Shown here: positions 481 to 64,000 of the stretch, piece after piece
Numbering within the stretch: position 1 is the stretch's first letter
How the letters are laid out: each line of letters opens with the position of its first letter
DNA from: an uncultured Planctomycetia bacterium
GTDB lineage: Bacteria > Omnitrophota > Gorgyraeia > 2-02-FULL-51-18
Direction: 5' to 3'
Length of the DNA stretch: 64,000 nucleotides
NCBI GenBank assembly: GCA_964431835.1
Contig: CAYSKO010000007.1
Coordinates: 8,997 to 72,996, forward strand
Made by a program: the position numbers and the translations under genes
The notes under the pieces: generated by a model
What the model saw: the letters and a program-made list of their open reading frames with translations, nothing else
The model's database searches: none
Told to the model about the DNA's origin: nothing

Positions 481-509
481 TCGACACGGGCGCTCCCGTT
501 AGGCATAAT
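481..509 (+). promoter_or_regulatory. Sigma-70-like promoter TCGACA-17 nt-CATAAT placed 7 nt upstream of the ATG at 517 (predicted leaderless transcript)
   Basis: Hexamers read directly from the sequence. There is no SD between the -10 and the ATG. Confidence 0.35.
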
Positions 510-516
510 ACGCCCG

Positions 517-1056
517 ATGCACAACCTCGTTGCCGTTCGACAATCTGACGAGATCCCCGAAGAGCTCCGTTCCACTCCCATCGGCAAGTTGTTTGAGTAC
601 CATAACCTTGGCCGCTCCTGGGAGACGTGCGAGAACGCCGAGCTCCTCGTCGTCATGTGCATGGACAACCGCAAGTACCTGCACATACCGGACAACTTCG
701 CCTACATCGTCCGCGCCGCGGGAGCGAATATCCGCCGCAGCGAATTCAAGATATCTTTCGCGATCGGCGTCGGCGCGGTGCGCCACGTCGCCATGATCGC
801 GCATACGCAGTGCCGCATGATGAACCTGGTCTCCCAAAAAGAGGAGTTCGTGAAAGGCCTTGTCGCCACGGGATGGACCGCCGAGCGCGCGGCCGCCCAC
901 TTCGATGAGTTCGCGCCTTCTTTCGAGATCGGCAACGAAACGGAGTTTATGGCGGGCGAAGCGGTGCGTCTCCGCCGGGAATACCCGAACGTCGTCTTCC
1001 GGCCTATCCTTTACCGCGTCGAAGACAACCTGCTTTACCTCATTTCAGAAAAATAG
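517..1056 (+). CDS. Beta-class carbonic anhydrase-like protein
   Basis: Zinc-ligand motifs C-x-D-x-R (CMDNR) and H-x-x-C (HTQC) at beta-CA spacing. 179 aa. Confidence 0.55.
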   Translation: MHNLVAVRQSDEIPEELRSTPIGKLFEYHNLGRSWETCENAELLVVMCMDNRKYLHIPDNFAYIVRAAGANIRRSEFKISFAIGVGAVRHVAMIAHTQCRMMNLVSQKEEFVKGLVATGWTAERAAAHFDEFAPSFEIGNETEFMAGEAVRLRREYPNVVFRPILYRVEDNLLYLISEK

Positions 1057-8138: not shown

Positions 8139-8166
8139 TTGACACCCGCCGGGATTGTGCTATTCT
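8139..8166 (+). promoter_or_regulatory. Sigma-70-like promoter of the heat-shock operon: TTGACA-16 nt-TATTCT
   Basis: Perfect -35 hexamer. The -10 lies immediately upstream of CIRCE. Confidence 0.45.
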
Positions 8167-8171
8167 AAGCA

Positions 8172-8198
8172 TTAGCACTCACTCTCTGTGAGTGCTAG
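8172..8198 (+). promoter_or_regulatory. CIRCE operator (HrcA binding site) TTAGCACTC-N9-GAGTGCTAG
   Basis: Matches the consensus TTAGCACTC-N9-GAGTGCTAA at 17/18 positions. It sits between the promoter and hrcA. Confidence 0.85.
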
Positions 8199-8211
8199 AA
8201 GGAGCCCTGGA

Positions 8212-9024
8212 ATGAGCGACAATCAGGCACGCAAGGACAAGGTTTTCGAACTCATCGTCCGAGCTTATATCGAGACCGCCGAACCGGTGGGCTCGCGCAT
8301 GATCTCCCGCCGTTCCGACCTGGGTTTATCCTCGGCATCCATCCGGAACGTGATGGCCGACCTCGAAGAAGAGGGTCTTCTGGCCCAGCCCCACACGTCG
8401 GCCGGCCGCGTGCCGACCGACAAGGGCTACCGTTACTACGTCGACCGGCTCATGGAGCGTGAAGAGCTGCACGATGACGAAAAGGCCGAGATCCGCGCCG
8501 AGCTCGACAAAGCCAAGTCCATCGACGGCATGGCGCTCAAAGTTTCCAAGCTCATCTCGGAACTCACCGAGAACACCGCGCTCATTTACATTCAGGGGAT
8601 CAAGCGTATTTCTTTCCTATCCGGGCAGAACGATCCCGAGCAGGCGCGTAAGTTGTCGGCCCTCATCGATGAGGCGGCCGCCGAGCTTTTCATCGATGGC
8701 GCGTTCCGGATGTTCGAGCAGCCGGAGTTTCAGGATTCCAAGCAGATGCGCCTGCTTCTCCAGACGCTCGACGACAAGGACGGCCTCGTGCGCGTGTTCG
8801 TGAAGGATCTCTCGCGGGACGAGGGTTTGCGGGTCCACATCGGGAGCGAGAACGCGCCCGAGAAGCTCGATAATTTGAGTCTCGTCGTCAAAGATTGCCA
8901 CCTAGGGCTCACGCCGTTCGGCGCCATCGCCGTCGTCGGTCCCAAACGCATGCGCTACGCGCGCATCGTCTCGGTCGTCGAGTTCGTGGCGGACACCGTT
9001 TCCGAAAAGATGAAGAGGATCTGA
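8212..9024 (+). CDS. hrcA: Heat-inducible transcription repressor HrcA
   Basis: Winged-HTH N-terminus (ELIVRAYIETAEPVGSR), HrcA family length and the operon context. ATG with SD AAGGAG; a possible in-frame upstream start is at 8188. Confidence 0.85.
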   Translation: MSDNQARKDKVFELIVRAYIETAEPVGSRMISRRSDLGLSSASIRNVMADLEEEGLLAQPHTSAGRVPTDKGYRYYVDRLMEREELHDDEKAEIRAELDKAKSIDGMALKVSKLISELTENTALIYIQGIKRISFLSGQNDPEQARKLSALIDEAAAELFIDGAFRMFEQPEFQDSKQMRLLLQTLDDKDGLVRVFVKDLSRDEGLRVHIGSENAPEKLDNLSLVVKDCHLGLTPFGAIAVVGPKRMRYARIVSVVEFVADTVSEKMKRI

Positions 9025-20086: not shown

Positions 20087-20115
20087 TCTTATCCTGATTC
20101 GTACCAAGGTATAAT
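20087..20115 (+). promoter_or_regulatory. Candidate promoter with a perfect -10 TATAAT (20110-20115) 7 nt upstream of the ROK ATG (leaderless arrangement); weak -35
   Basis: Read directly. No SD precedes the ATG at 20123. Confidence 0.3.
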
Positions 20116-20122
20116 ACCCGCC

Positions 20123-21097
20123 ATGTCAAAAGTCGCGATTGGAATAGACATCGGCGGGACGAGCATCAAGCTCGGCCTCGTCACGGGCCAGGGCCGCCTG
20201 ATCGAGAAGACCTCTTTTCCGACCGATAAAAAGGGCGGCCGCGAGAAAACCCTCCGGGAGCTCGAGCGCCAGGTGAAAGCGTTCGCCGCGAAGGCGCGCT
20301 CCGCCGGCCACCAAGTCGCGGGCGTGGGCATCGGCGCTCCGGGCCCCGTCGACGTCGATCGCGGTTTCGTCTACTTCTTCCCGAACGTCCCCGGCTGGAA
20401 AGACACGCCGCTCGTTTCAATCCTCTCTAAGCGCCTCCGGATGCCGGTCCGTCTCGACAACGACGCCAACGCCATGGCGCTCGGCGAATTCCTCTTCGGC
20501 GCGGGCCGCGGTGTAAAGAACGGCATCGCCCTCACGCTAGGCACGGGGGTCGGCGGCGGCATCATTCTGGACGGCAAGCTTTTCCATGGCCCGACGTACT
20601 CTGCGGCCGAGATCGGCCATCTCGTTATCAACGAGGACGGCCCCAAATGCGGCTGCGGCAACACTGGCTGCATCGAAACGTACGTCGGCAACGGTTATTT
20701 CACCCGGGAAATCGAGCGCCGCCTGGCCAAGGGCGAGAAAAGCGTCCTTTCGGCTTGGATCAAAGAAGGGAAGACGCTCACACCTCTCCTTGCGAAGGAA
20801 GCATGGAAGAAGGGCGACCGTTTCGCGAAGAAAATGTGGGCGGACACGGGAACGCATCTGGGCAACGCCCTCGTGGGCCTCGTGAACATCCTGAATCCAG
20901 AAAAGATCATCCTGGGCGGCGGAATAGCCCAGAACCCCGAGATCCTTTTTCCGCACGTCATCGAAACGATCCGGAAGAAGGCGTTTCCGATCGCCTTCCG
21001 TTCGCTGAAAGTGGTCCCGGCGCGTCTCGGCACCGAAGCGGGGCTCATCGGCGCGGCAGCGCTCGTTTTCGCGAACTCGGAGGGGAAGCGCACGTGA
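20123..21097 (+). CDS. ROK-family sugar kinase (glucokinase-like)
   Basis: N-terminal GIDIGGT ATPase motif and the ROK zinc motif (CGCGNTGCIE). Confidence 0.85.
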   Translation: MSKVAIGIDIGGTSIKLGLVTGQGRLIEKTSFPTDKKGGREKTLRELERQVKAFAAKARSAGHQVAGVGIGAPGPVDVDRGFVYFFPNVPGWKDTPLVSILSKRLRMPVRLDNDANAMALGEFLFGAGRGVKNGIALTLGTGVGGGIILDGKLFHGPTYSAAEIGHLVINEDGPKCGCGNTGCIETYVGNGYFTREIERRLAKGEKSVLSAWIKEGKTLTPLLAKEAWKKGDRFAKKMWADTGTHLGNALVGLVNILNPEKIILGGGIAQNPEILFPHVIETIRKKAFPIAFRSLKVVPARLGTEAGLIGAAALVFANSEGKRT

Positions 21098-29561: not shown

Positions 29562-29593
29562 ATTGAGTCATGAATAAATTGAGTCATGAATAA
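29562..29593. repeat. Perfect tandem duplication of the 16-mer ATTGAGTCATGAATAA, abutting the inverted repeat and containing the candidate start codon of the downstream gene
   Basis: Copies at 29562-29577 and 29578-29593, read directly. Confidence 0.7.
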
Positions 29594-30539
29594 GATGAAA
29601 ACACTCCTTATAACCGGCGGCGCCGGGTTCGTAGGACGGCACGCGATCGACGCGGCCCTTAAAAAAGGGTTCGCCGTCCGCGTGCTCGACAACTTCTCGA
29701 CGAGCCGCCGCGAGGCGCTCGATTCCGTGAAGCAGCGGATTAAGCTCATCGAAGGAGACATCCGCGACCCGAAGATCGCCGCGCGCGCGATGAAGGGCGT
29801 CCATGCCGTCTTTCATCTGGCGGCGATTCGCTCGGTGATGCGCTCGGTCGAGGACCCGTTCCTCGCGCACGAAGTGAACGCCACCGGCACCCTCGTGCTT
29901 CTGGAGGCGGCCCGTGCAGCGGGCGTGAAACACTTCCTTTTCGCTTCCACGAGTGCCGTGTACGGCGACACGCCGGCCCGCCGCCAGAGCGAGGCAGGGC
30001 CGCTCCGCCCGATCTCGCCCTACGGCGCCGCGAAGCTCGCCGCCGAAATGTACGCACGCCACTATTCGCTCGAGAAGGGCCTTCCAACCACCTCGATCCG
30101 CATCTTCAACGTCTACGGTCCACGCCAGAACCCGGAGTCCAAATATTCGCTCGTCGTGCCCGGCCTTCTTTCGAAGATCCTGAAAGGGGAGAGGCCGAAG
30201 ATAGACGGCACCGGAAAACAGTCGCGGGATTTCGTCTACATCGGCGACGTGCTCGAGGCGTTCTTCCGCGCCCTCGGCAACCGGAAATCCCACGGCAAGG
30301 TGTATAATGTGGGCTCTGGCCGGACGCATTCGATCAACGACCTGGCGAGTACCCTGATCCGGCTCGCGGGCTCGCGCCTCAAGCCGGAATACGGACCCCG
30401 CCGCGGGGGAGACCCGGATGTCACCTGCGCCAACGTGCGCGCGATCGGCCGCGAACTGGGCTGGCGGCCGCGAACGGGGCTCGAACGCGGACTCAAGGAA
30501 ACCACCGAATGGGCGATAAGAGAAAAAAGCGCGTTCTGA
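29586..30539 (+). CDS. NAD-dependent nucleotide-sugar epimerase (UDP-Glc/UDP-GlcNAc 4-epimerase family, WbpP-like)
   Basis: ITGGAGFVG motif and the YGAAK catalytic pair. The alternative start ATG 29595 gives MKTLLITGG. Confidence 0.85.
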
Positions 30540-32288: not shown

Positions 32289-32585
32289 ATGAAGAAGATT
32301 CTCGTTTGGACCGCGATCGGCCTGTTTGCGGCCGCCTCGAATGCCGCCGCTGGCGACGCCTGCTGCGGAACGTCCTCGCCCGAAGAAATGAAGCAGTCCG
32401 CCCAGACGGTGGACGACGCCGCCAAAGCGCTTGAAGGCACCAACCCCGAGCTCGCAGCCAAACTCAAAAAGATCGCCGCGCACAAGCGTGAGCACGGTGA
32501 AGGCAAGGCGGAGCACGGTGAAGGCAAGGCGGCGCACGGGCACGGGCAAGAGCATCCCGCCGGCGGCTCGGAGCACCCGGCTTAA
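32289..32585 (+). CDS. Small secreted His-rich protein (signal peptide, CC motif, tandem EHGEGKA repeats), putative metal-binding
   Basis: Strong SD, an Sec-type signal peptide (MKKILVWTAIGLFAAASNAAA), a perfect 21-bp tandem repeat at 32489-32530 and a terminator immediately downstream. Confidence 0.6.
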   Translation: MKKILVWTAIGLFAAASNAAAGDACCGTSSPEEMKQSAQTVDDAAKALEGTNPELAAKLKKIAAHKREHGEGKAEHGEGKAAHGHGQEHPAGGSEHPA

Positions 32586-32612: not shown

Positions 32613-32658
32613 CGGAGCGGGAGGCCGGTAGGCCGTCCCGCTCCGGTTTCGTTTTTTT
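32613..32658 (+). terminator. Rho-independent terminator (10-bp GC-rich stem CGGAGCGGGA/TCCCGCTCCG, then TTTCGTTTTTTT)
   Basis: Read directly. Confidence 0.75.
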
Positions 32659-32679
32659 CGCGAGAACGGGTTCCTTATA

Positions 32680-34890
32680 ATGACAGATTTCCACGCATTG
32701 ATTACCTCGGGGCTTTTCCTCCCGATTCTCTTCGCCGCGGGCACCGCCCGTGCCGGTGAAGCGCATCGTCATACTAACCGCCTGGCTTCCGAAAAGAGCC
32801 CCTACCTCCTACAGCACGCCCACAATCCGGTCGACTGGTATCCTTGGGGCGACGAAGCTTTCGAGAAGGCCCGTCGCGAAGACAAGCCGGTGTTCCTTTC
32901 GATCGGGTACTCGACTTGCCACTGGTGCCACGTGATGGAGGAGGAATCCTTCGAGGACGAAACCACCGCCGCGCTTCTCAATGACCGCTTCGTCTCGATC
33001 AAAGTGGACCGTGAGGAACGCCCCGACATCGACGGCGTCTACATGAACTACGTGATGGCCACGACGGGAAGCGGCGGCTGGCCGATGAGCGTGTTCTTGA
33101 CTCCCGACCGGAAACCCTTTTACGGCGGTACGTATTTCCCGCCGGAAGACCGCTACGGCATGCCTGGCTTCAAGAGCCTTCTGAAAGAACTCGCCGACGC
33201 CTGGAAGACGCGTCGCTCTGAGATCGTCGAATCCGCTGATTCTGCCGCCGCTTTCTTGGGTGCTCGCCGTCAAAAGGGTGAAGCGAAGGTGCTCGGAGAG
33301 GAGACGCTCGCGGCCGGTTATACCCGGTTCGAGCGCATCTTCGACGACGCACATGGCGGCTTCGGCCGCGCCCCGAAGTTTCCGCGTAGCCACGTTCTTT
33401 CGTTCATTCTCCGCCAGGGCCGCCGCTCGGGCGAGCCGCGTGCTCTCGAGATCGTAGAAAAGACGCTGAAAGGCATGGCCGGCGGCGGTATGTACGACCG
33501 CCTGGGCGGGGGCTTCCACCGCTATTCGGTGGACGGACAGTGGCGCATCCCGCATTTCGAGAAGATGCTTTACGACCAGGCGCTTCTGGTGGCGACCTAC
33601 GTCGAAGCGTATCAGGCGACGGGGGACGCTTTCTACGCCCGGATCGCCCGCGAGACGCTCGATTACGTCCTCCGCGAGATGACGTCCCCCGAGGGCGGCT
33701 TCTACTCGGCGCAGGATGCCGACAGCGAGGACCCTCATGTCGCCGGAAAGAAGCGCGAAGGCGCTTTCTTCGTCTGGAAGAAGGAAGAGATCGAAAAAAT
33801 TCTTGGTGCCGAAAACGCGAAACTCGCGGTATTTCGCTACGGGGTCGAGCCGGCTGGCAACGCGCTTTCCGATCCGCACAACGAATTCAAGGAACAGAAC
33901 GTTCTCTACGACGCGCGCACGCTTGAGGCGACCGCCTCCGAATTCGGCCTGAAAGCGGAAGAGGCGGTCCGGCGGTTCGAGGGGATCGACCGCGCGCTCT
34001 TCGATGCGCGGAAGAAACGCCCGGCGCCCTATTTGGACGACAAAGTTCTCGCCGACTGGAACGGCCTCATGATCGCCGCTTTCGCGCGCGCGGGCCGTGC
34101 TCTGGACGAGCCGCGTTACGTGGAGGCCGCCGCGCGGGCCGCCTCATTCGCGAAAACGGGCCTCACGCGACCGGACGGAACGCTCTACCACCGCTGGCGC
34201 GGCGGGGAAGCGGGAATCCCGGGAAATTTGAACGACTACGCGTCGCAGATCGAAGGGCGCCTCGCTCTCTACGAAGCGACGTTCGACGAGGCGCACCTGA
34301 CCGAAGCGCTCCGGTTGGCCGATATCCTCGTCCGGCTTTTTCACGACGAGGAGGACGGCGGTTTTTACCTGACCGCCGCGGACGCCGGTGCTCCGATCGC
34401 GCGTTTGAAGGAATCGCACGACGGCGCCGTGCCGTCCGGCAACTCGGTGGCCGCGCTCGCGTTCGTTCGGCTCGAACGCATCACGGCCGACCGCAAGTGG
34501 CGCGACCTTTCCGACCGCACGCTCGAGGCGCTTTCCGCCGACGTCGCCGCTGAACCCACGTCTCTACCTTACCTTCTCATGGCGCTCGACTACGCGATTG
34601 GCCCGTCCGCCGAAGTTGTGCTCGCCGGCCGTGCCGACGACCCGGCGCTCGCGGCGTTCACGAAGGCGGTGTTTGGCGCATTCGCGCCGAACAAGGTCGT
34701 CCTCTTCCACAAGGAAGGGCAGGGCGCCGCGCTCGAGAAGATCGCCCCGTACGTGAAGGATCAGACCGCACTGGAAGGCCGGATGACCGCCTACGTCTGT
34801 CGCGACCACGTCTGCGGGTTGCCTACCGCGGACCCGGCCGCCGCCGCGAAAGCTTTGGAACCGACGAAACCGCAAGTCACGAAAGCCTAA
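32680..34890 (+). CDS. Thioredoxin-domain protein of the DUF255/YyaL family (N-terminal thioredoxin-like domain plus a six-hairpin glycosidase-like domain)
   Basis: Signal-like N-terminus, the conserved CHWCHVM motif and a 736-aa length. Confidence 0.8.
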
Positions 34891-39381: not shown

Positions 39382-39615
39382 TTAGTCGTTGTCGTCGGAG
39401 TCGCCGCCGCCGAACCAGCCTTTATTCTCTGGCTTATTCGCCTTTTTCTTCGTGTCGATGAGCTGGCCGTCTTCCATGTCCTTGGCGACGGCGTAGCCGC
39501 CGACGACGCCGCCGGCGATAAGGGCCGCCGCGCAGCCCGGAAGGGAAAGCGCCGAGATCGTGAGCGAAATCATCATGAGAAGCGTGACGAGCGAGCGGAG
39601 GAATGGGATGCGCAC
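39382..39615 (-). CDS. OsmB-like glycine-zipper lipoprotein (signal peptide with lipobox LPGC, then GxxxG zipper AGGVVGGYAVA)
   Basis: GTG start with SD AAGGAG. The lipobox and Gly-zipper 2TM motif are read directly. It is the only minus-strand gene in the first 61 kb. Confidence 0.55.
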   Translation of the reverse strand: MRIPFLRSLVTLLMMISLTISALSLPGCAAALIAGGVVGGYAVAKDMEDGQLIDTKKKANKPENKGWFGGGDSDDND

Positions 39616-39658
39616 GGGGGAGTCTCCTTTCGCCGATTATAGCATAAACCCCTCAATT

Positions 39659-39667
39659 TGATATAAT
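39659..39667 (+). promoter_or_regulatory. Extended -10 element TGaTATAAT placed 8 nt upstream of the gatC ATG (predicted leaderless gatCAB transcript)
   Basis: Read directly. There is no SD before the ATG at 39676. Confidence 0.35.
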
Positions 39668-39675
39668 CACCCCCT

Positions 39676-39966
39676 ATGGCCGACATCGATCTTAAGAACG
39701 TCGCGAAGCTCGCGCGCCTCCACCTCACCGACGACGAAATCCGTCACCTGGAAGGCCAGGTGAAAGGGATACTCGACTTCGTCGAGCAGCTGAAGGAAGT
39801 AAACGTCGAGGGCATCGAGCCTACGACCCACCCGTTCCCGGTCCGGGACGTCTTCCGCGAAGACGAGCCGAAGCCCTCCCTCAAGATCGAAGAGTTCCTG
39901 AAGACGGCTCCCAAGGCCAAAGGCCGCTTCTTCGAGGTCCCGAAGATCATCGAGGATAAATCGTGA
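39676..39966 (+). CDS. gatC: Asp-tRNA(Asn)/Glu-tRNA(Gln) amidotransferase subunit C
   Basis: GatC family N-terminus ([19 protein letters not shown]) and its operon position before gatA/gatB. Confidence 0.9.
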
Positions 39967-57236: not shown

Positions 57237-57888
57237 CGCGGATTTCCTGAACCGGGGTTTCCTGTCCCTGGCGGGCGTAGACGAGGTCGGTAGGGGTCCC
57301 CTTGCGGGACCGGTAGTGGCCTCGGCTGTGATCGTCAGGGACGCTTCATTTTCGTGCGCCATCGACGACTCCAAAAAGTTGTCGCCCGCATCCCGGGAAG
57401 TGGCGTACAGGGAAATCCTTCAGAAAGCCCACGTCGCCGTAAGCGTGAAGGATCATACGGTGGTCGACGAGCTCAATATCTTTTGGGCGTCGATGGCCGC
57501 GATGAAGGACGCCGTGCGCCGCTTGCCTTCCACCCCCGATTACGTGATCGTGGACGGCAACCACGTCCCCGATTTCGAGCAAGACAAAGACGTCCGCCGC
57601 GCCGCCCTCGTGAAGGGCGACTCCAAATCCCTCGCGATCGCCTGCGCCTCCATCGTCGCGAAAGTGACCCGCGACCGCATCATGGAAGAGTACGACAAAG
57701 TTTATCCCCAGTACGGCTTCAAATCCCACAAAGGCTACTGCACGCGCGAGCACGTCACCGCACTCCTCGCGCATGGCCCGACCCCGATCCACCGCCGCAG
57801 CTTCGAACCCGTGAAATCCCTCGTCGAAGGCCGCTCCCCGGGCCTCCGAATGAAAGATTGCCAGCCCCGCGGCTCCAATTTAGAATAG
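57184..57888 (+). CDS. rnhB: Ribonuclease HII
   Basis: [16 protein letters not shown] motif and the DDSK and DGN catalytic residues. The start is uncertain (TTG 57184 after the SD-like GAGAGG); it overlaps the rplS 3' end. Confidence 0.75.
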
Positions 57889-57894
57889 ACCTCC

Positions 57895-59433
57895 ATGGAA
57901 ACCCTTTTAATCATCGACTTCGGTTCCCAGTACAACCAGCTCATCGCCCGCCGGGTGCGCGAGTCGAAGGTGTACTGCGAGATCGTTCCGCCCACGATCA
58001 CCGCCGACCAGATCCGCGCCAAAGGGAACGTAAAGGGGATCATCCTTTCCGGCGGCCCGGCGAGCGTGTACTTAAAGAACGCGCCTCAGCTCGACGCGGG
58101 CTATCTCGAGCTCGGCCTTCCGATCTTCGGCATTTGCTACGGCATGCAGGCCCTTTCGCATCTTTTGGGTGGCAAGGTCTGCCGCGCGGAAGAGAAAGAA
58201 TTCGGCCGCGCCGATCTTTTCGTGAAAAGCTCCGGCGGCTCGCTCTTTAAGGGCGTCCCCCGGAAGTCTATTTCCTGGATGAGCCACGGCGATTACGTTT
58301 CGATCATGCCGAAAGGCTTCCAGACCACTGCCTTTACGAAGAACACCAAAGTCGCCGCATTCGAGAACGACGCGAAGAAGATCTACGGCGTCCAGTTCCA
58401 CCCCGAGGTCGCGCACTCCGAGCACGGTAAGAAGGTGATCGAGAACTTCATTAAGGTCTGCGGTTTCAAGAAGTCGTGGACGATGGAGAACTTCATCAAG
58501 GAGAAGACCCGCGAGATCAAGGAGAAGGTCGGGACCGACCACGTGATCCTCGGCCTCTCGGGCGGCGTGGATAGCTCCGTCGCCGCCGCGCTCATGGCGA
58601 AGGCGCTCGGGAAGCAGCTCACCTGCATTTTCGTGAACAACGGCCTGCTAAGGAAGAACGAGGTCGAGTACGTCCGCCAGGCATTCGCCGGCAAATTCAA
58701 TTTCAATCTCGACATCGTGGACGCCGAGAAGCATTTCCTCACCGCGCTGAAAGGCGTCACGGACCCGGAGAAGAAACGCAAGGTCATCGGCCACGAGTTC
58801 ATCTACGCCTTCGACCGCGAAGCGAAGAAAATCAAGAACGCGAAGTGGCTCGGGCAGGGGACGCTGTACCCCGACGTGATCGAGAGTAAGTCCGCCTTCG
58901 GCGGCCCCACCGCCGTCATCAAGAGCCACCACAACGTGGGCGGCCTCCCTGAGAAGATGAAGCTCAAGCTCATCGAGCCCCTCCGCGAGCTTTTCAAAGA
59001 CGAGGTCCGCGAGCTCGGGAAATCGCTCGGCCTCCCGAAAGAGCTCGTATGGCGCCACCCGTTCCCGGGCCCCGGCCTGGCCGTGCGCGTCTTGGGAGAA
59101 GTCACGAAGGAACGCTGCGACATTTTAAGGGAAGCCGACCACCGCTTCCTGGAAGAACTCCACAAGAGCGGCCTCTACACGAAGATCTGGCAAGCCTTCG
59201 CCGTCCTCCTCCCGGTCCGCTCCGTGGGCGTCATGGGCGACGAACGCACCTACGACAACGTCGTCGCCCTCCGCGCCGTCACCAGCGTCGACGGCATGAC
59301 CGCGGACTGGTTCGATATGCCGAAGGAAGTTTTGGGAAAAGTTTCTAACAGAATCATTAACGAAGTCAAAGGCGTGAACCGCGTCTGCTACGACGTGTCT
59401 AGTAAACCCCCGGCGACTATTGAATGGGAATGA
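57895..59433 (+). CDS. guaA: GMP synthase (glutamine-hydrolysing)
   Basis: GATase catalytic Cys (GICYGMQ) and the PP-loop SGGVDSSV. 512 aa. Confidence 0.95.
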
Positions 59434-59475: not shown

Positions 59476-59503
59476 AGCTCAGCATCAGCTGAGTATTTTT
59501 TTT
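59476..59503 (+). terminator. Short hairpin (AGCTCAGC-atca-GCTGAGT) plus T9 run directly after guaA; the likely guaA terminator and the left border of the low-GC islet
   Basis: Read directly. Confidence 0.45.
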
Positions 59504-60137
59504 GAGCTTTTTTAAAAAAGAGAAATACCAAGACCCTTCCTTCCCTCCGCTTTTAGATAACGAAATTGAATTTATAAAAAAACTCGACGTAGATTCCGCG
59601 ACTCGATTCATTGAGACGCATGGAAAAAATAAATCCGCTGATGCCAAAGAGCATATCAGGGAAGCAAATCAATTCGAATTCGATATTTGCAATCTTTTAC
59701 TCAAAGGAGCAGGCGCGGCTTTTACATTATATTTTGCTTTGATCGCATATCTGAAGATAACGCCTTCATTTGTACCATTAATTCTTTGGGCTACTTCTGC
59801 GTATTTAGGCATGCTTCATCAGAAGAAATGGTCTCGGAGATTGTTGGGCATTGGTAAAAGAGAAAACTTAATTTCCATGGAAGCGGCACTTCAAATTTTC
59901 AAGCACAACGATGATAGATGTAAGTTCGTGATGCAGGTATTGAAAGAGCAGTTTTTGTACTTAAGCCGCATAACGGCGAAGCAGAGATTAAATCAAGCAG
60001 ACTATAAGTATGTTGTAGTATTCACAGAACTTCCTTTTTTTCTCATAAATTTACAGATTATTTTAGTTATCCTAGGAATTTTTATCGCCGCAACTCAATT
60101 ATTTCCCAACTCAGTAAGCTTAAATGTTGCTAGTTAG
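59502..60137 (+). CDS. Hypothetical membrane protein (two hydrophobic regions flanking a soluble middle segment), low-GC
   Basis: Open frame of 211 codons with an AT-rich composition. The only start is TTG inside the terminator T-run, so the true start may be an internal ATG. No recognisable domain. Confidence 0.35.
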   Translation: MSFFKKEKYQDPSFPPLLDNEIEFIKKLDVDSATRFIETHGKNKSADAKEHIREANQFEFDICNLLLKGAGAAFTLYFALIAYLKITPSFVPLILWATSAYLGMLHQKKWSRRLLGIGKRENLISMEAALQIFKHNDDRCKFVMQVLKEQFLYLSRITAKQRLNQADYKYVVVFTELPFFLINLQIILVILGIFIAATQLFPNSVSLNVAS

Positions 60138-60190
60138 TCGGCCTTAAAACAAAGTCCTGACAACGTCCTTTAAGCAAAAGAAACTGAACG

Positions 60191-60502
60191 ATGAGTGATT
60201 CGTACTCTGTTCTCGGTCTGAAGCCCGGCGCTTCGAAGGATGAGATTCGAGAGGCGTATCGCGATCTCGTGAAGGTTTGGCATCCGGATCGCTTCGCGCA
60301 CGATCCCGTTTTCCAGAAAAAGGCGCAGGAGAATCTCAAACAGATAAACAAGGCGTACGAGGAGCTTTCGAACGGGACGCAGAATCGAGCCGCGTGCGAG
60401 CGGAGCGTCCGCGTGAAAAAGCATCCCCTTCGTCTTCTGCGGGGAGCGCGAGGACTAGCGCCTCAGCCCATGCGTCGAAGCCGCGCGCGAAAGCTTCTGT
60501 GA
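60191..60502 (+). CDS. J-domain (DnaJ-like) protein
   Basis: YSVLGLKPGASKDEIREAYRDLVKVWHPDRF with the HPD motif. The Arg-rich C-terminus may be low-complexity. Confidence 0.7.
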   Translation: MSDSYSVLGLKPGASKDEIREAYRDLVKVWHPDRFAHDPVFQKKAQENLKQINKAYEELSNGTQNRAACERSVRVKKHPLRLLRGARGLAPQPMRRSRARKLL

Positions 60503-60723
60503 TGTCTTCTCAAAAATGCCATTTCGGCGGTTTGGCGCTCATGTGGACACTCTTTGGGCTTTTGGAACTCGGCGCGGTCGGTGTCTATCAAAGCTCGCCG
60601 CCAGCTCCGTCTACGAACGCTGAGGTGGCTCCCTGGACGGAAGTAGATCCGAAGTCGATCCGGCTCGAAGGGCTCGGTCCGATATTGGTTATTTCACGCT
60701 CGGATCAACGAAAGAGAGAGTAA
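60502..60723 (+). CDS. Small single-TM protein translationally coupled to the J-domain gene (TGATG overlap)
   Basis: ATG at 60502 shares the A of the upstream TGA. A hydrophobic helix (HFGGLALMWTLFGLLELGAVGVY) follows. Alternatively it is the frameshifted C-terminus of the J-domain protein. Confidence 0.35.
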   Translation: MSSQKCHFGGLALMWTLFGLLELGAVGVYQSSPPAPSTNAEVAPWTEVDPKSIRLEGLGPILVISRSDQRKRE

Positions 60724-60887
60724 GAAGCGTACAGGGCACTCCCACTAGCATCGTTGGTAACATGTGGTTGTATGGGTTCGATCACGTCTCCTTCGACTCA
60801 AGTGGAAAGGTCGTGGGGTACCGTAATGACTCCGGAAAGCTTAGAGTGCGATGATCGAAGCATCAACGGAGCGAGAAGGCATCTTCC

Positions 60888-60936
60888 CATACCGGACGTC
60901 GTCCCGACCGACCTTTCGGGACGTCGTCCCAAAACC
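60888..60936. repeat. 49-bp direct repeat, copy 1 (CATACCGGACGTCGTCCCGACCGACCTTTCGGGACGTCGTCCCAAAACC), with an internal 7-bp-stem hairpin
   Basis: Identical at 49/49 to the copy at 61536-61584. Confidence 0.85.
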
Positions 60937-61016
60937 CGGGGATACACAACAACTTATAGGAAGTCATCATCCGAACAGACCGGGCGCCGTCTGAGAAGTA
61001 ATTATCGGGGATCAAA

Positions 61017-61496
61017 ATGAAACGACCCATTCCGCTCGTTATGTCCTTCCTCTTGCTTGCTGGCTGCGCCACGATGAGCAGTCTTCCTAAGACTGCAAAC
61101 GACGTCAATTTCGATTCGAAAGAGGGGAAGACGGGCTGGTCCAAATATGAGGAGACGTTCTTCTTCAGGGGTGTGGACAAGCGCACGACGTACCTGGCGG
61201 CAAAGTCCGGGCTTTCGGACGCGGAATTCACCGTGACACAAGCGGATTTCGAGAAGGGATACGCCAAGGGTAAGCACGGCATGACGGCTTACGACTGGAA
61301 CATCGTGGCGGGCGTGTACGTCAAAGAGATAGAGGGTGGCACTCAGGTGAAGATCGTAGTGGAAGGCTCTAAGGACATCGGCTTCATGGGTGACATGACA
61401 GACCAAAGCTGGCCTCAGAAAATTTACAAGGGTATGCGGGACTACGTCCAAGGCGAGTCCTCCATAACGGATCCGAATAAGAAGATCTTTCAATGA
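61017..61496 (+). CDS. Hypothetical lipoprotein (signal peptide MKRPIPLVMSFLLLAGC with lipobox LAGC)
   Basis: Lipobox read directly. 159 aa, bracketed by the 49-bp direct repeats. No recognised domain. Confidence 0.55.
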   Translation: MKRPIPLVMSFLLLAGCATMSSLPKTANDVNFDSKEGKTGWSKYEETFFFRGVDKRTTYLAAKSGLSDAEFTVTQADFEKGYAKGKHGMTAYDWNIVAGVYVKEIEGGTQVKIVVEGSKDIGFMGDMTDQSWPQKIYKGMRDYVQGESSITDPNKKIFQ

Positions 61497-61535
61497 CGAA
61501 TACGGGAAAGACTGTAAATCATCGTCTTGATACTT

Positions 61536-61584
61536 CATACCGGACGTCGTCCCGACCGACCTTTCGGGACGTCGTCCCAAAACC
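61536..61584. repeat. 49-bp direct repeat, copy 2 (identical to 60888-60936)
   Basis: Read directly. Confidence 0.85.
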
Positions 61585-61663
61585 GGATGGATCGGCCCTT
61601 CATTCTGAAAGAGGCGTAAACAATCGCCTTAAATTAACGCTGTTGCCGACTCCGATTCCAGTC

Positions 61664-62332
61664 TCAGAGCGCGTTACTTTTTCCTATATTACAAACGGAG
61701 CAAAGGGTCCTTAGATTTTCAGTCATTGTCGCTCCACCTTTTGACCATGGCTTGATATGGTCAACATGCAAAACAACCGCCGGATCTTTCGCAGGGCTTG
61801 CACCACACATCTTGCAAATACAGTTATCTCGGATCAAAACCATAGCTCTAAGACGCCAATTGATCTTCCTTGGCCACTTTCCATGATTTATTTTAGAATT
61901 TCCGATGTTAGGGGCCACCTCCATCATCTCGGAATTATTCACAAAATCCCCGAATGCTTGCAGAGCCTTGTTCCAGGATCCAAATCGTTTTTCATAAGTG
62001 CCTAGCGCAAATTTTGAAAGACCCGCGGTTTTTTCCATATCTGACCCTACGGGCTGTCTTCCAAGCTTTTGCCAAACATCGGCTAAATTGCCGAACAACG
62101 TCTCTTCCTTGTTATTCGACGTCAGAACAATTCTTAATCCGGCCACCTCTAGCGCTGTATTCCATGCGCCAAATCGTCTAAGAATTGTGGTCTTTCCAAA
62201 TCTGCCCTTTTCATCATAGGCGGCTGCCGTTAAGGTTGTCTGTCCCATGGATTCCGCGACCCTTCGAATGTCGGCCGCCAACTCCTTATTTGGAATATTT
62301 CGCCTTCTAAGGTTAATTTCAAATTTTTTCAT
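61664..62332 (-). CDS. HNH endonuclease with two N-terminal homing-endonuclease-associated repeats
   Basis: HNH motif (HVDHIKPWSKGG...NLRTLCSVCN) and CxxC pairs. Two RFG(S/A)WN(K/T)AL repeat units are typical of HNH-associated repeats. Confidence 0.8.
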   Translation of the reverse strand: MKKFEINLRRRNIPNKELAADIRRVAESMGQTTLTAAAYDEKGRFGKTTILRRFGAWNTALEVAGLRIVLTSNNKEETLFGNLADVWQKLGRQPVGSDMEKTAGLSKFALGTYEKRFGSWNKALQAFGDFVNNSEMMEVAPNIGNSKINHGKWPRKINWRLRAMVLIRDNCICKMCGASPAKDPAVVLHVDHIKPWSKGGATMTENLRTLCSVCNIGKSNAL

Positions 62333-62336
62333 ACGC

Positions 62337-62792
62337 TCAATCCAAAAATGGCTCTATCCATTTTCTAAATAACTTTAACGCATCCGCCGGCACCACAATC
62401 GGGAAATCAACAAGCGCGTCCACGCCATGCGCCATGAAGTCGCGCGTGTTCCAGGTGACAAATGCGGATACTTTTGCCAAATGCGCCGAGCAAAGGATGG
62501 AGGCATCTCCCTTATCTAATTTGTGTAGAAATCGTTTTGCTTGAGTAGCCGTGGGTTCGGGTGCGATTTCCGGAGCGAGGGCTTTTAAAAGTTCGCGGCT
62601 TTTCTCAACCCGAATAGGAAACTTTTTGGATAAGACGCGGTCTATTTCTATAATAACCTCTTCCGAGACAACCATACTGATCGCGCCACCTTCTACGAGA
62701 CGGATAAGCTCTCCCGCCGCACCTTCCGGAGAAAGCAAAGCCGCTATGTAGGTGCTTGTATCAAAGAAGATGCGGTATCTCGGTATGGCCAT
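62337..62792 (-). CDS. vapC: PIN-domain toxin (VapC-like ribonuclease)
   Basis: N-terminal IFFDTS acidic motif and PIN fold conserved acidic residues. It lies immediately downstream of an AbrB-type antitoxin. Confidence 0.8.
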   Translation of the reverse strand: MAIPRYRIFFDTSTYIAALLSPEGAAGELIRLVEGGAISMVVSEEVIIEIDRVLSKKFPIRVEKSRELLKALAPEIAPEPTATQAKRFLHKLDKGDASILCSAHLAKVSAFVTWNTRDFMAHGVDALVDFPIVVPADALKLFRKWIEPFLD

Positions 62793-63038
62793 TTATGAAC
62801 TTTTGCTGTGGCGAATCTTTTTCAGATCCTTTAAAAGCTCATCCAGCGTGATACCTTTCTCTTTGGATTCTTTCACAAACCCCGCTGATGTAGTTTTAAA
62901 TGTAGAGAGCCCTGGGGTAATCAAAATCCCATTTCCCACTTTGGCTACGGACAAAACAGAGTCCTTCGAAAGATGAAGTGACTCCCTGATGCCTGATGGG
63001 ATCGTCACCTGTCCTTTTTCCCTCATTTTGGTTACCAT
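62793..63038 (-). CDS. vapB: AbrB/MazE/SpoVT-type antitoxin (VapB-like)
   Basis: Swapped-hairpin motif (KGQVTIPSGIRESLHL). ATG with SD GGAG, and its stop abuts the vapC start. The track ORF extends further upstream, but the 81-aa form fits the family. Confidence 0.75.
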   Translation of the reverse strand: MVTKMREKGQVTIPSGIRESLHLSKDSVLSVAKVGNGILITPGLSTFKTTSAGFVKESKEKGITLDELLKDLKKIRHSKSS

Positions 63039-63080
63039 TCTTCTTCTCCTATTTTCATACTGATTCCTACTTTCTAACAA

Positions 63081-63109
63081 AGTGTACCACAGATAGGGGT
63101 GGAATTCAA
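63081..63109 (-). promoter_or_regulatory. Candidate promoter for vapB-vapC-HNH on the minus strand: TTGAAT-17 nt-TACACT
   Basis: Reverse complement read directly. It lies about 45 nt upstream of the vapB ATG. Confidence 0.3.
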
Positions 63110-63458
63110 ATAGCAAACCCCTCTGTGCCAATGTGATCGCAAAAGCGGAGGCGTTACTCCCCGTGACACCCTATTTGCAAAACCGGGCCGCGTCGTTCAA
63201 CATAGGAGCTCTGGCGACCCCAGCCGTGCGCCTCTGCGCACGGCACTCCGGAGGCGGCTGTATAAGGGGTCAAGTCTTTCCCTGACTGCATCTGACGCGT
63301 ATCTATCGCAACGCCGTCGAATATCCGAATCCCATGCGACAAGCTTCTTGAAACGAAAGCAGCTTGAGACGATGGTCCTGTAGGACCCCATAAAATTACT
63401 TGTAGGGCCGATGGTGCAAATAATCTTTGAGTTTATTGTTTGTTTCACTGGACGCGCA

Positions 63459-64000
63459 TCAAATAAATATTTTTATTTTATGTTTTCTAGATCGCAACGC
63501 CATAAAAAAACTATAAGCCAAAGTTAAAATAGTTACAGGCAAAACAAATAATAGCGTGGTTCGACCGAATATCGGCAATAGATCGTGGGCTTGAGCGTTC
63601 AGGATCAAATAGATGATATAGAAAAAATAGTAGGCTAAAAAAATAAACCCTTCCCAGCGTGCAATCAGCCGCCCAGTTAAAAATATCGGCAAGCAAGCAA
63701 ACGCGACCGCGATCATGAACGGTAGATCAAAACCGATGAGGGATCGCGCGACGGGGACAGATCCAGCTCCGGACAACAGACCTGTCAGGCCTCCGACACC
63801 TAAAATATTGAATATGTTGCTACCGATGACATTCCCGATTGCAATATCCTTTTCTCCTTTAAGCGTTGCGACGACTGACGTGAAGATCTCCGGAAACGCT
63901 GTCCCTGCCGCGATGATCGTCAGCGAGATCACTAGATCGCTAACCCCGTACGCCTTAGCAATGGCTACAGCTCCCAATATCAGTCTATTGGACCCGAAAA
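63459..64000 (-). CDS. CaCA-family cation/calcium antiporter (YrbG-like), C-terminal half; the gene continues beyond the window end
   Basis: Alpha-2 repeat motif (GNVIGSNIFNIL) and multiple TM helices. AT-rich composition unlike the core genome. Confidence 0.7.
   Translation of the reverse strand, partial: FGSNRLILGAVAIAKAYGVSDLVISLTIIAAGTAFPEIFTSVVATLKGEKDIAIGNVIGSNIFNILGVGGLTGLLSGAGSVPVARSLIGFDLPFMIAVAFACLPIFLTGRLIARWEGFIFLAYYFFYIIYLILNAQAHDLLPIFGRTTLLFVLPVTILTLAYSFFMALRSRKHKIKIFI

Follow-up and report, generated by a model that had tools for sequence, protein, structure and literature searches.

Candidate leaderless promoters at gatC, a ROK-family kinase gene and two further genes of an Omnitrophota-like bacterium

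The four genes and their start codons

The window, that is the whole 64-kb stretch of DNA that was analysed (about 62 % GC), contains four plus-strand genes in which a promoter-like -10 hexamer lies almost directly against the start codon. They encode a β-carbonic-anhydrase-like protein of 179 aa (517-1056; CA-like in the following), a ROK-family sugar kinase of 324 aa (20123-21097), GatC of 96 aa (39676-39966), and GuaA of 512 aa (57895-59433). The first two, with ATG 517 and ATG 20123, are candidates for a leaderless start; gatC is the best-supported candidate and guaA a fourth, weaker one. gatC opens a gatC-gatA-gatB array with 4-nt overlaps between the genes, which continues to about 45955. 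All four genes start with ATG, and GTG or TTG starts occur in 7 of the 35 genes tabulated for the window.

Judged by protein similarity, the organism is an Omnitrophota-like bacterium of the PVC group. Omnitrophota are a candidate phylum within that group and comprise mostly uncultured, often ultra-small bacteria. The best matches of the ROK protein in species-representative genomes (55-68 % identity) were found in metagenome-assembled genomes (MAGs) of Candidatus Omnitrophota, some of them under other labels, and the named best matches of GuaA (65-80 % identity) belong to Omnitrophica/Omnitrophota, bar one labelled Eisenbacteria. MAGs labelled 'Candidatus Eisenbacteria' (DATJEK01), 'uncultured Planctomycetia', or 'uncultured Anaerolinea' (loci L002, L004-L011, L143, and L147) group with Omnitrophota on the basis of ROK, GatC, and GuaA similarity and of synteny. 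The taxonomic labels of these MAGs look unreliable.

The CA-like protein carries the CxDxR and HxxC motifs and gives a weak match to the Pfam profile Pro_CA, under the curated cut-off. A protein search returned more than 1000 homologs of 179-196 aa, with a query coverage of 97-100 %. Homologs were also examined at 59 metagenomic loci, which represent many phyla; nearly all of these begin at the equivalent residue, and the alignments run from residue 1. An identical protein is encoded on a JGI metagenome contig, and the contig of the window occurs in JGI metagenome 3300020057. In the ROK protein, positions 2-291 of the Pfam profile correspond to residues 6-315 and position 1 of TIGR00744 to residue 6, while the ATP-binding DxGGT motif occupies residues 9-13, which rules out any downstream start. 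Positions 2-93 of TIGR00135 fall on residues 2-93 of GatC, and most of the 120 matches listed for this protein are 95-97 aa long. For GuaA, positions 2-512 of NF000848 align with residues 5-512.

With profile or homolog alignments reaching residues 1-6, the annotated ATGs of the four genes mark the true N-termini, in agreement with the sequence-only reading, which had argued for its three genes (CA-like, ROK, and gatC) that the starts were not mis-called. The reading frames of these three are open from 349, 19943, and 39667, respectively, and in none of them does a possible start codon precede the ATG. Mis-called starts, with the true ones located downstream in frame behind ordinary leaders, could in principle be sought at the in-frame TTG 589 of the CA-like gene or at the GTG of codon 29 in gatC. 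These codons are not preceded by a Shine-Dalgarno (SD) sequence, nothing else speaks in favour of them, and together with the N-terminal alignments this makes mis-calling a most improbable explanation.

Geometry of the promoter-like elements

Re-reading of the sequence placed the three motifs of the sequence-only reading at exactly the coordinates given there, all on the plus strand. In front of the CA-like gene, a -35-like TCGACA (481-486) begins 5 nt past the stop codon (474-476) of a response-regulator gene and is followed at 17 nt by CATAAT (504-509), the 7-nt spacer acgcccg (510-516), and ATG 517. In a promoter scan, TCGACA-17-CATAAT matched the consensus at 10/12 positions, with 5/6 in the -35 hexamer and no TG; CATAAT keeps A2 and T6, without the first T of TANNNT. 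The ROK gene is preceded by GG-TATAAT at 20108-20115 (TATAAT at 20110-20115) and the 7-nt spacer acccgcc (20116-20122); a convincing -35 was not found upstream of this TATAAT. The -10 element of gatC is of the extended type, TGaTATAAT at 39659-39667 (TG at 39659-39660, TATAAT at 39662-39667), combined with a poor -35, and the 8-nt spacer caccccct (39668-39675) separates it from ATG 39676.

The promoter scan added a fourth case of this geometry, guaA, which was absent from the earlier list. Here, TTGCCA-17-TAGAAT occupies 57858-57886 on the plus strand (TTGCCA at 57858-57863, TAGAAT at 57881-57886), again with a 10/12 consensus match, 5/6 in the -35 hexamer, and no TG, and it ends 8 nt before ATG 57895. 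The element lies within the 3' end of rnhB, the stop codon of which (57886-57888) overlaps the last T of the hexamer.

All four genes thus have a -10 hexamer with the essential A2 and T6 at about 6-9 nt from the start codon, the spacers being 7 nt (CA-like and ROK) or 8 nt (gatC and guaA). The sequence-only reading had proposed that transcription starting 7 nt downstream of the -10 would put +1 on the A of the ATG. The count needs correction: the A is the eighth nucleotide after the hexamer at the CA-like and ROK genes and the ninth at gatC, and the distance is 10 nt in two gatC orthologs, so that some transcripts may carry a leader of 1-3 nt. The eighth or ninth base after the hexamer still falls within the range in which RNA polymerase starts transcription. 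The spacers are C-rich, and that of guaA (agacctcc, 57887-57894) includes an anti-SD-like CCTCC. Such C-rich spacers may focus the start site on the A or may reflect a property of discriminator-type promoters.

No SD was found between the presumed transcription start and the start codon of any of the four genes, and the CA-like gene has no SD-like 4-mer at -18 to -4. The earlier statement that the three genes lack an SD holds downstream of the -10 box; the ROK gene does have an AAGG at -17 to -14, the sole SD-like 4-mer among the candidates, which is located 5' of the box. At the 5' end of each of the four ORFs, RNA folding of 45 nt showed weak structure, albeit no less than in shuffled sequences (z between -0.01 and 1.2), a result that is neutral for the leaderless reading. 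Scanning the window for Rfam families and tRNAs gave no match, and the upstream regions are therefore not explained by a riboswitch or other noncoding RNA.

Frequency in the window and use of Shine-Dalgarno sequences

TATAAT occurs five times on the plus strand and twice on the minus strand of the 64 kb. The combination TATAAT-N6-9-ATG was observed twice, both times at a verified gene start, against 0.08 ± 0.31 expected from dinucleotide shuffles. When a good -10 box was defined as a match of at least 5/6 to TATAAT with A2 and T6 required, 8 of the 1234 ATG triplets on both strands had one at 6-9 nt upstream. Half of these eight are verified gene starts (517, 20123, 39676, and 57895). None of the remaining four is a gene start; they are confined to the AT-rich tail of the window (60-64 kb), and between 1 and 60 kb all qualifying ATGs are starts of genes. 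The enrichment at gene starts, evaluated against the 28 ATG gene starts, is significant (one-sided Fisher test, p = 1.4e-5). That an AT-rich hexamer and an ATG meet by chance where the intergenic region is short might be argued from the higher AT content of intergenic as compared to coding DNA, and from the four qualifying ATGs of the tail. Set against the shuffles, the Fisher test, and the conservation of the geometry at gatC and ROK across species (see below), chance is a very improbable explanation.

An SD-like 4-mer at -18 to -4 was present in 23 of the 35 genes, the AAGG of ROK included, compared to 22 % of random positions; about one third of the genes have none. The organism uses SDs, but less universally than the sequence-only reading implied when it credited most other genes with clear GGAGG-like SDs. 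Among the roughly 17 operon-first genes of the window, about three to four show the promoter-adjacent geometry. It was also sought at the SD-less genes polA (46345), a class-I release-factor gene (52634), an epimerase gene (29586), and a DUF255 gene (32680), none of which gave a clean fit. Histograms of TANNNT-to-ORF-start distances over the retrieved Omnitrophota loci were set aside, since they comprise too few independent genes and ROK dominates the signal.

Leadered units and other features of the window

Ordinary leadered units are present in the window and contrast with the four candidates. hrcA is preceded by TTGACA-16-TATTCT (with TG), a CIRCE element, and AAGGAG, with ATG 8212 as its start. 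This heat-shock control region (8139-8214) lies ahead of hrcA-grpE-dnaK-dnaJ, and the CIRCE inverted repeat, TTAGCACTC-N9-GAGTGCTAg, is found at 8172-8198. GTG 8188, the listed start of the hrcA ORF, is part of CIRCE and hence not where the gene really starts. Similarly, TCGACA-18-TAAAAT and then AAGGAG belong to a gene near 32290 that encodes a small secreted protein.

In the gene for a DUF255/thioredoxin-domain protein, the first ATG, 32680, coincides in part with a perfect TATAAT (TTATAATG, region 32676-32700), and a terminator-like hairpin with a T-run is located just before the gene (32630-32656). Either ATG 32680 is used without an SD and from some other promoter, or the in-frame TTG 32698 is used on a very short leader. 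Directly upstream of the gene for a GalE-like epimerase, two copies of a 15-nt direct repeat, TTGAGTCATGAATAA, stand with 1 nt between them (at 29563 and 29579; region 29563-29597). The repeat gives rise to two candidate ATGs, 29586 and 29595, and to a TAAATT 5 nt upstream of ATG 29586; of the two, ATG 29595 (MKTLLITGG) is the more probable start by profile alignment.

In the tail of the window (59500-64000), GC falls from about 0.62 to 0.49. This part contains a DnaJ-domain ORF (60191-60502) and two minus-strand genes, of which one (61664-62332) encodes an HNH endonuclease with homing-endonuclease repeats and the other (62337-62792) a PIN-domain protein. The tail is probably a foreign or mobile segment. 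In one relative (L148), an HNH gene is located downstream of guaA as well.

Conservation of the gatC promoter

The gatC locus was compared with six other orthologous loci (63-88 % protein identity; 63-100 % when the window itself is included). TATAAT was found 7-9 nt before the ATG in all seven, preceded by TG (TGnTATAAT) in six, and an SD was found in none. In the alignment, the six positions of the -10 hexamer and the ATG are invariant at a mean column identity of 56 %, the flanks having diverged. Most loci share the order RNase D gene, small minus-strand ORF, gatC, gatA. The upstream neighbour of gatC lies on the opposite strand, 298 nt away, and gatC must for this reason have a promoter of its own. 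The sole conserved promoter element abuts the start codon. This conservation is, at the level of sequence comparison, the strongest evidence for the leaderless reading, and a leaderless start at gatC is considered highly probable.

The divergent small ORF (39382-39641 region, minus strand) has its own -10 TATAAT (39636-39641, minus strand), back-to-back with the gatC promoter at 20 bp from the gatC -10, followed by an AAAGGAG SD and GTG 39615. It encodes a hydrophobic N-terminus and had no Pfam match. A minus-strand ORF of 50-58 aa is present at the matching place between rnd and gatC in the relatives L142-L144. The pair would show a leadered, SD-using transcript starting 20 bp from a leaderless-type one.

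Two arrangements at the ROK kinase gene

A total of 23 orthologous ROK loci, the window included, were compared. In nine, a strong -10 box lies 6-10 nt from the start codon, too close for an SD to fit in between. In eight, it lies 21-40 nt away, and all eight of these have an SD-like 4-mer. The remaining six have no strong -10 box within 60 nt; four of them carry an SD. A -10 box at 11-20 nt was found in none of the 23. GGTATAAT or TGnTATAAT recurs upstream of the Omnitrophota ROK orthologs, and in one ortholog (L015) the same leaderless geometry is combined with a GTG start codon. The two classes are interleaved when the loci are ordered by protein identity, which indicates repeated switching between the modes. 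This either/or pattern is what leaderless initiation would predict, the leader being either essentially absent or long enough to hold an SD. A leaderless start at the ROK gene of the window is accordingly regarded as rather likely, albeit with less assurance than at gatC.

guaA and the CA-like gene in other genomes

The leaderless geometry was found in none of four guaA orthologs (75-80 % identity) with the conserved order trmD-rplS-rnhB-guaA; these lack a -10 box close to the ATG and have purine-rich, SD-like stretches instead. The geometry in the window is thus lineage-specific, and guaA was downgraded as a candidate as the arrangement is not conserved. Since its ATG lies 6 nt past the rnhB stop codon, translational coupling is a live alternative here, and a leaderless start at guaA is somewhat doubtful.

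For the CA-like gene, a protein search, a metagenome scan, and inspection of one contig yielded no orthologs from the same phylum. The inspected contig was of Bacteroidota type, with a Por_Secre_tail neighbour. The homologs that were found are at most 62 % identical and come from other phyla; they support the start codon and cannot serve to test conservation of the promoter. What speaks for this gene is a 10/12 match to the promoter consensus, a start codon verified by homologs, and the lack of an SD, which together make a leaderless start an even bet. The proposal of the sequence-only reading that the repeated geometry reflects genuine leaderless mRNAs is therefore carried strongly by gatC with its 7/7 loci and well by ROK with its 23 loci, and for the CA-like gene it comes down to the motif and the verified start.

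Leaderless transcripts or read-through from upstream genes

Same-strand genes end 40 nt upstream of the CA-like gene, 46 nt upstream of the ROK gene, and 6 nt upstream of guaA, and scans detected no terminator behind any of them. Read-through polycistronic mRNAs are therefore plausible for these three genes, which would need SD-independent initiation on such mRNAs; for the CA-like and ROK genes this limits the leaderless proposal. It could be argued that expression comes mainly from read-through mRNAs and that translation without an SD proceeds by coupling or re-initiation, or by S1- or structure-dependent initiation, the -10-like hexamers being weak internal promoters or fortuitous AT-rich intergenic sequence. 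The guaA orthologs, which lack the hexamer and have SD-like purine runs, agree with this. So do polA (46345) and the class-I release-factor gene (52634): they have no SD-like motif and no -10 at leaderless distance, and are C-rich before the ATG, so that some SD-independent initiation on leadered mRNA seems to exist in this organism.

Read-through does not apply to gatC, with its divergent neighbour at 298 nt, and it leaves unexplained why TATAAT is invariant at 7-9 nt in 7/7 gatC loci. Nor does it account for the split among the ROK loci, in which an SD is present when the -10 is more than 20 nt away and absent when it is at 10 nt or less. A gap of 40-46 nt is, moreover, long for stop-start coupling. 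The truly coupled genes of the window have ATGA or GTGA overlaps of 4 nt, and of the four candidates only guaA starts within a few nucleotides (6 nt) of an upstream stop. Taken as the main route of expression, read-through is unlikely. Read-through transcription and internal promoters may well coexist.

The preferred reading is that the gatC, ROK, CA-like, and guaA genes have σ70-type promoters that give rise to leaderless mRNAs, and for the group of genes as a whole this is likely. Where transcription starts and how ribosomes load is inferred from the sequence. RNA polymerase would initiate at the A of the start codon or 1-2 nt before it, and the resulting mRNA would start with AUG and have neither a 5' UTR nor an SD. 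Ribosomes would load directly onto the 5'-terminal AUG, and the downstream cistrons gatA and gatB would be translated from their own SDs or by coupling across the 4-nt overlaps. Most of the promoter work would be done by the -10 box, usually with a G at -14 (TGn or GG at -15 to -13), the -35 often being weak. In the gatC orthologs as well as in the window, pyrimidines predominate directly upstream of the ATG, and a pyrimidine-rich spacer would make the A of the ATG the first favourable purine for initiation.

Relation to known leaderless systems

The mechanism envisaged is an ordinary one that has already been described in other phyla, not a new one. TANNNT at about 10-12 nt upstream of the start is an in silico mark of bacterial leaderless genes (PMC3160421), and genomes of GeneMarkS-2 group C have a Pribnow box 6-8 nt from the gene start (PMC6028130). 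For Actinobacteria and Deinococcus-Thermus, such promoter boxes have been recorded on a large scale (PMC3160421, PMC6028130). The promoter-adjacent arrangement was confirmed experimentally in Deinococcus (PMC12340547), and experimental verification has also been reported in PMC4007540. The genes described here resemble such TA-led or group C genes in that a -10 box ends 6-8 nt before the start codon and an SD is lacking (PMC3160421, PMC6028130, PMC12340547, PMC4007540). The known genes of this type are operon-first ones; here, gatC with its divergent neighbour is first in its transcription unit, and the CA-like, ROK, and guaA genes follow genes on the same strand. They also share with group C-type systems that operon-internal genes keep SDs and that orthologs switch between modes; ortholog switching between leaderless and SD-led modes has been described before (PMC3160421). 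Unlike the degenerate TAnnnT of Actinobacteria and Deinococcus, the full TATAAT is found here, often with TGn or GG upstream and despite a GC content of about 62 %. The share of operon-first genes involved, about three to four of roughly 17, falls short of the 25-50 % that group C genomes typically show, and the host is Omnitrophota-like and of the PVC group rather than a member of Actinobacteria or Deinococcus-Thermus.

In other bacteria, ribosomes are known to load directly on the 5'-AUG of leaderless mRNAs (PMC8459731, PMC4007540), and in the reporter-based rules for Caulobacter crescentus an AUG together with a zero or near-zero leader is reported to define efficient leaderless initiation (PMC8459731). 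All four candidates have ATG in common with the C. crescentus leaderless mRNAs, to which the leader length predicted from the promoter positions would correspond. As to accessibility of the start codon, folding gave no sign that it is special here (fold z of about 0). gatC and its TG-bearing orthologs, with TGnTATAAT and a poor -35, and ROK, with GGTATAAT or TGnTATAAT, resemble extended -10 promoters; the CA-like and guaA genes differ from these in having a good -35 (5/6) and no TG. Genes without an SD are also a feature of the Bacteroidota-type non-SD ribosome-binding sites of GeneMarkS-2 group B. Membership in this FCB-type group was rejected, as about two thirds of the genes have an SD-like motif and the signal is a promoter hexamer, not an A-rich ribosome-binding site.

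Implications for Omnitrophota

A full-text literature search retrieved no report of leaderless genes in Omnitrophota, and with the present candidates leaderless-type promoters would be known from a PVC candidate phylum as well. A broader possibility, put forward tentatively, is that leaderless initiation is a regular second mode of expression in Omnitrophota, with gatCAB fixed as leaderless throughout the phylum and ROK and guaA repeatedly flipping. The latter two would then alternate between a promoter-adjacent ATG and an SD leader of at least 20 nt, intermediate lengths being selected against. Should this be true, the choice of promoter would decide whether the array-embedded CA-like and ROK ORFs are translated at all.

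In conclusion, the biological value of these observations is modest, and their practical value lies in the annotation of Omnitrophota MAGs, in which software that relies on an SD to call genes and operons may score start codons wrongly. Where a -10 box lies 6-9 nt upstream of an ATG, it can serve as positive evidence both for the start codon and for the boundary of a transcription unit. The two best-sampled genes would further provide a comparative example of how modes of initiation interconvert, with gatC apparently fixed as leaderless and ROK alternating without intermediate leader lengths.
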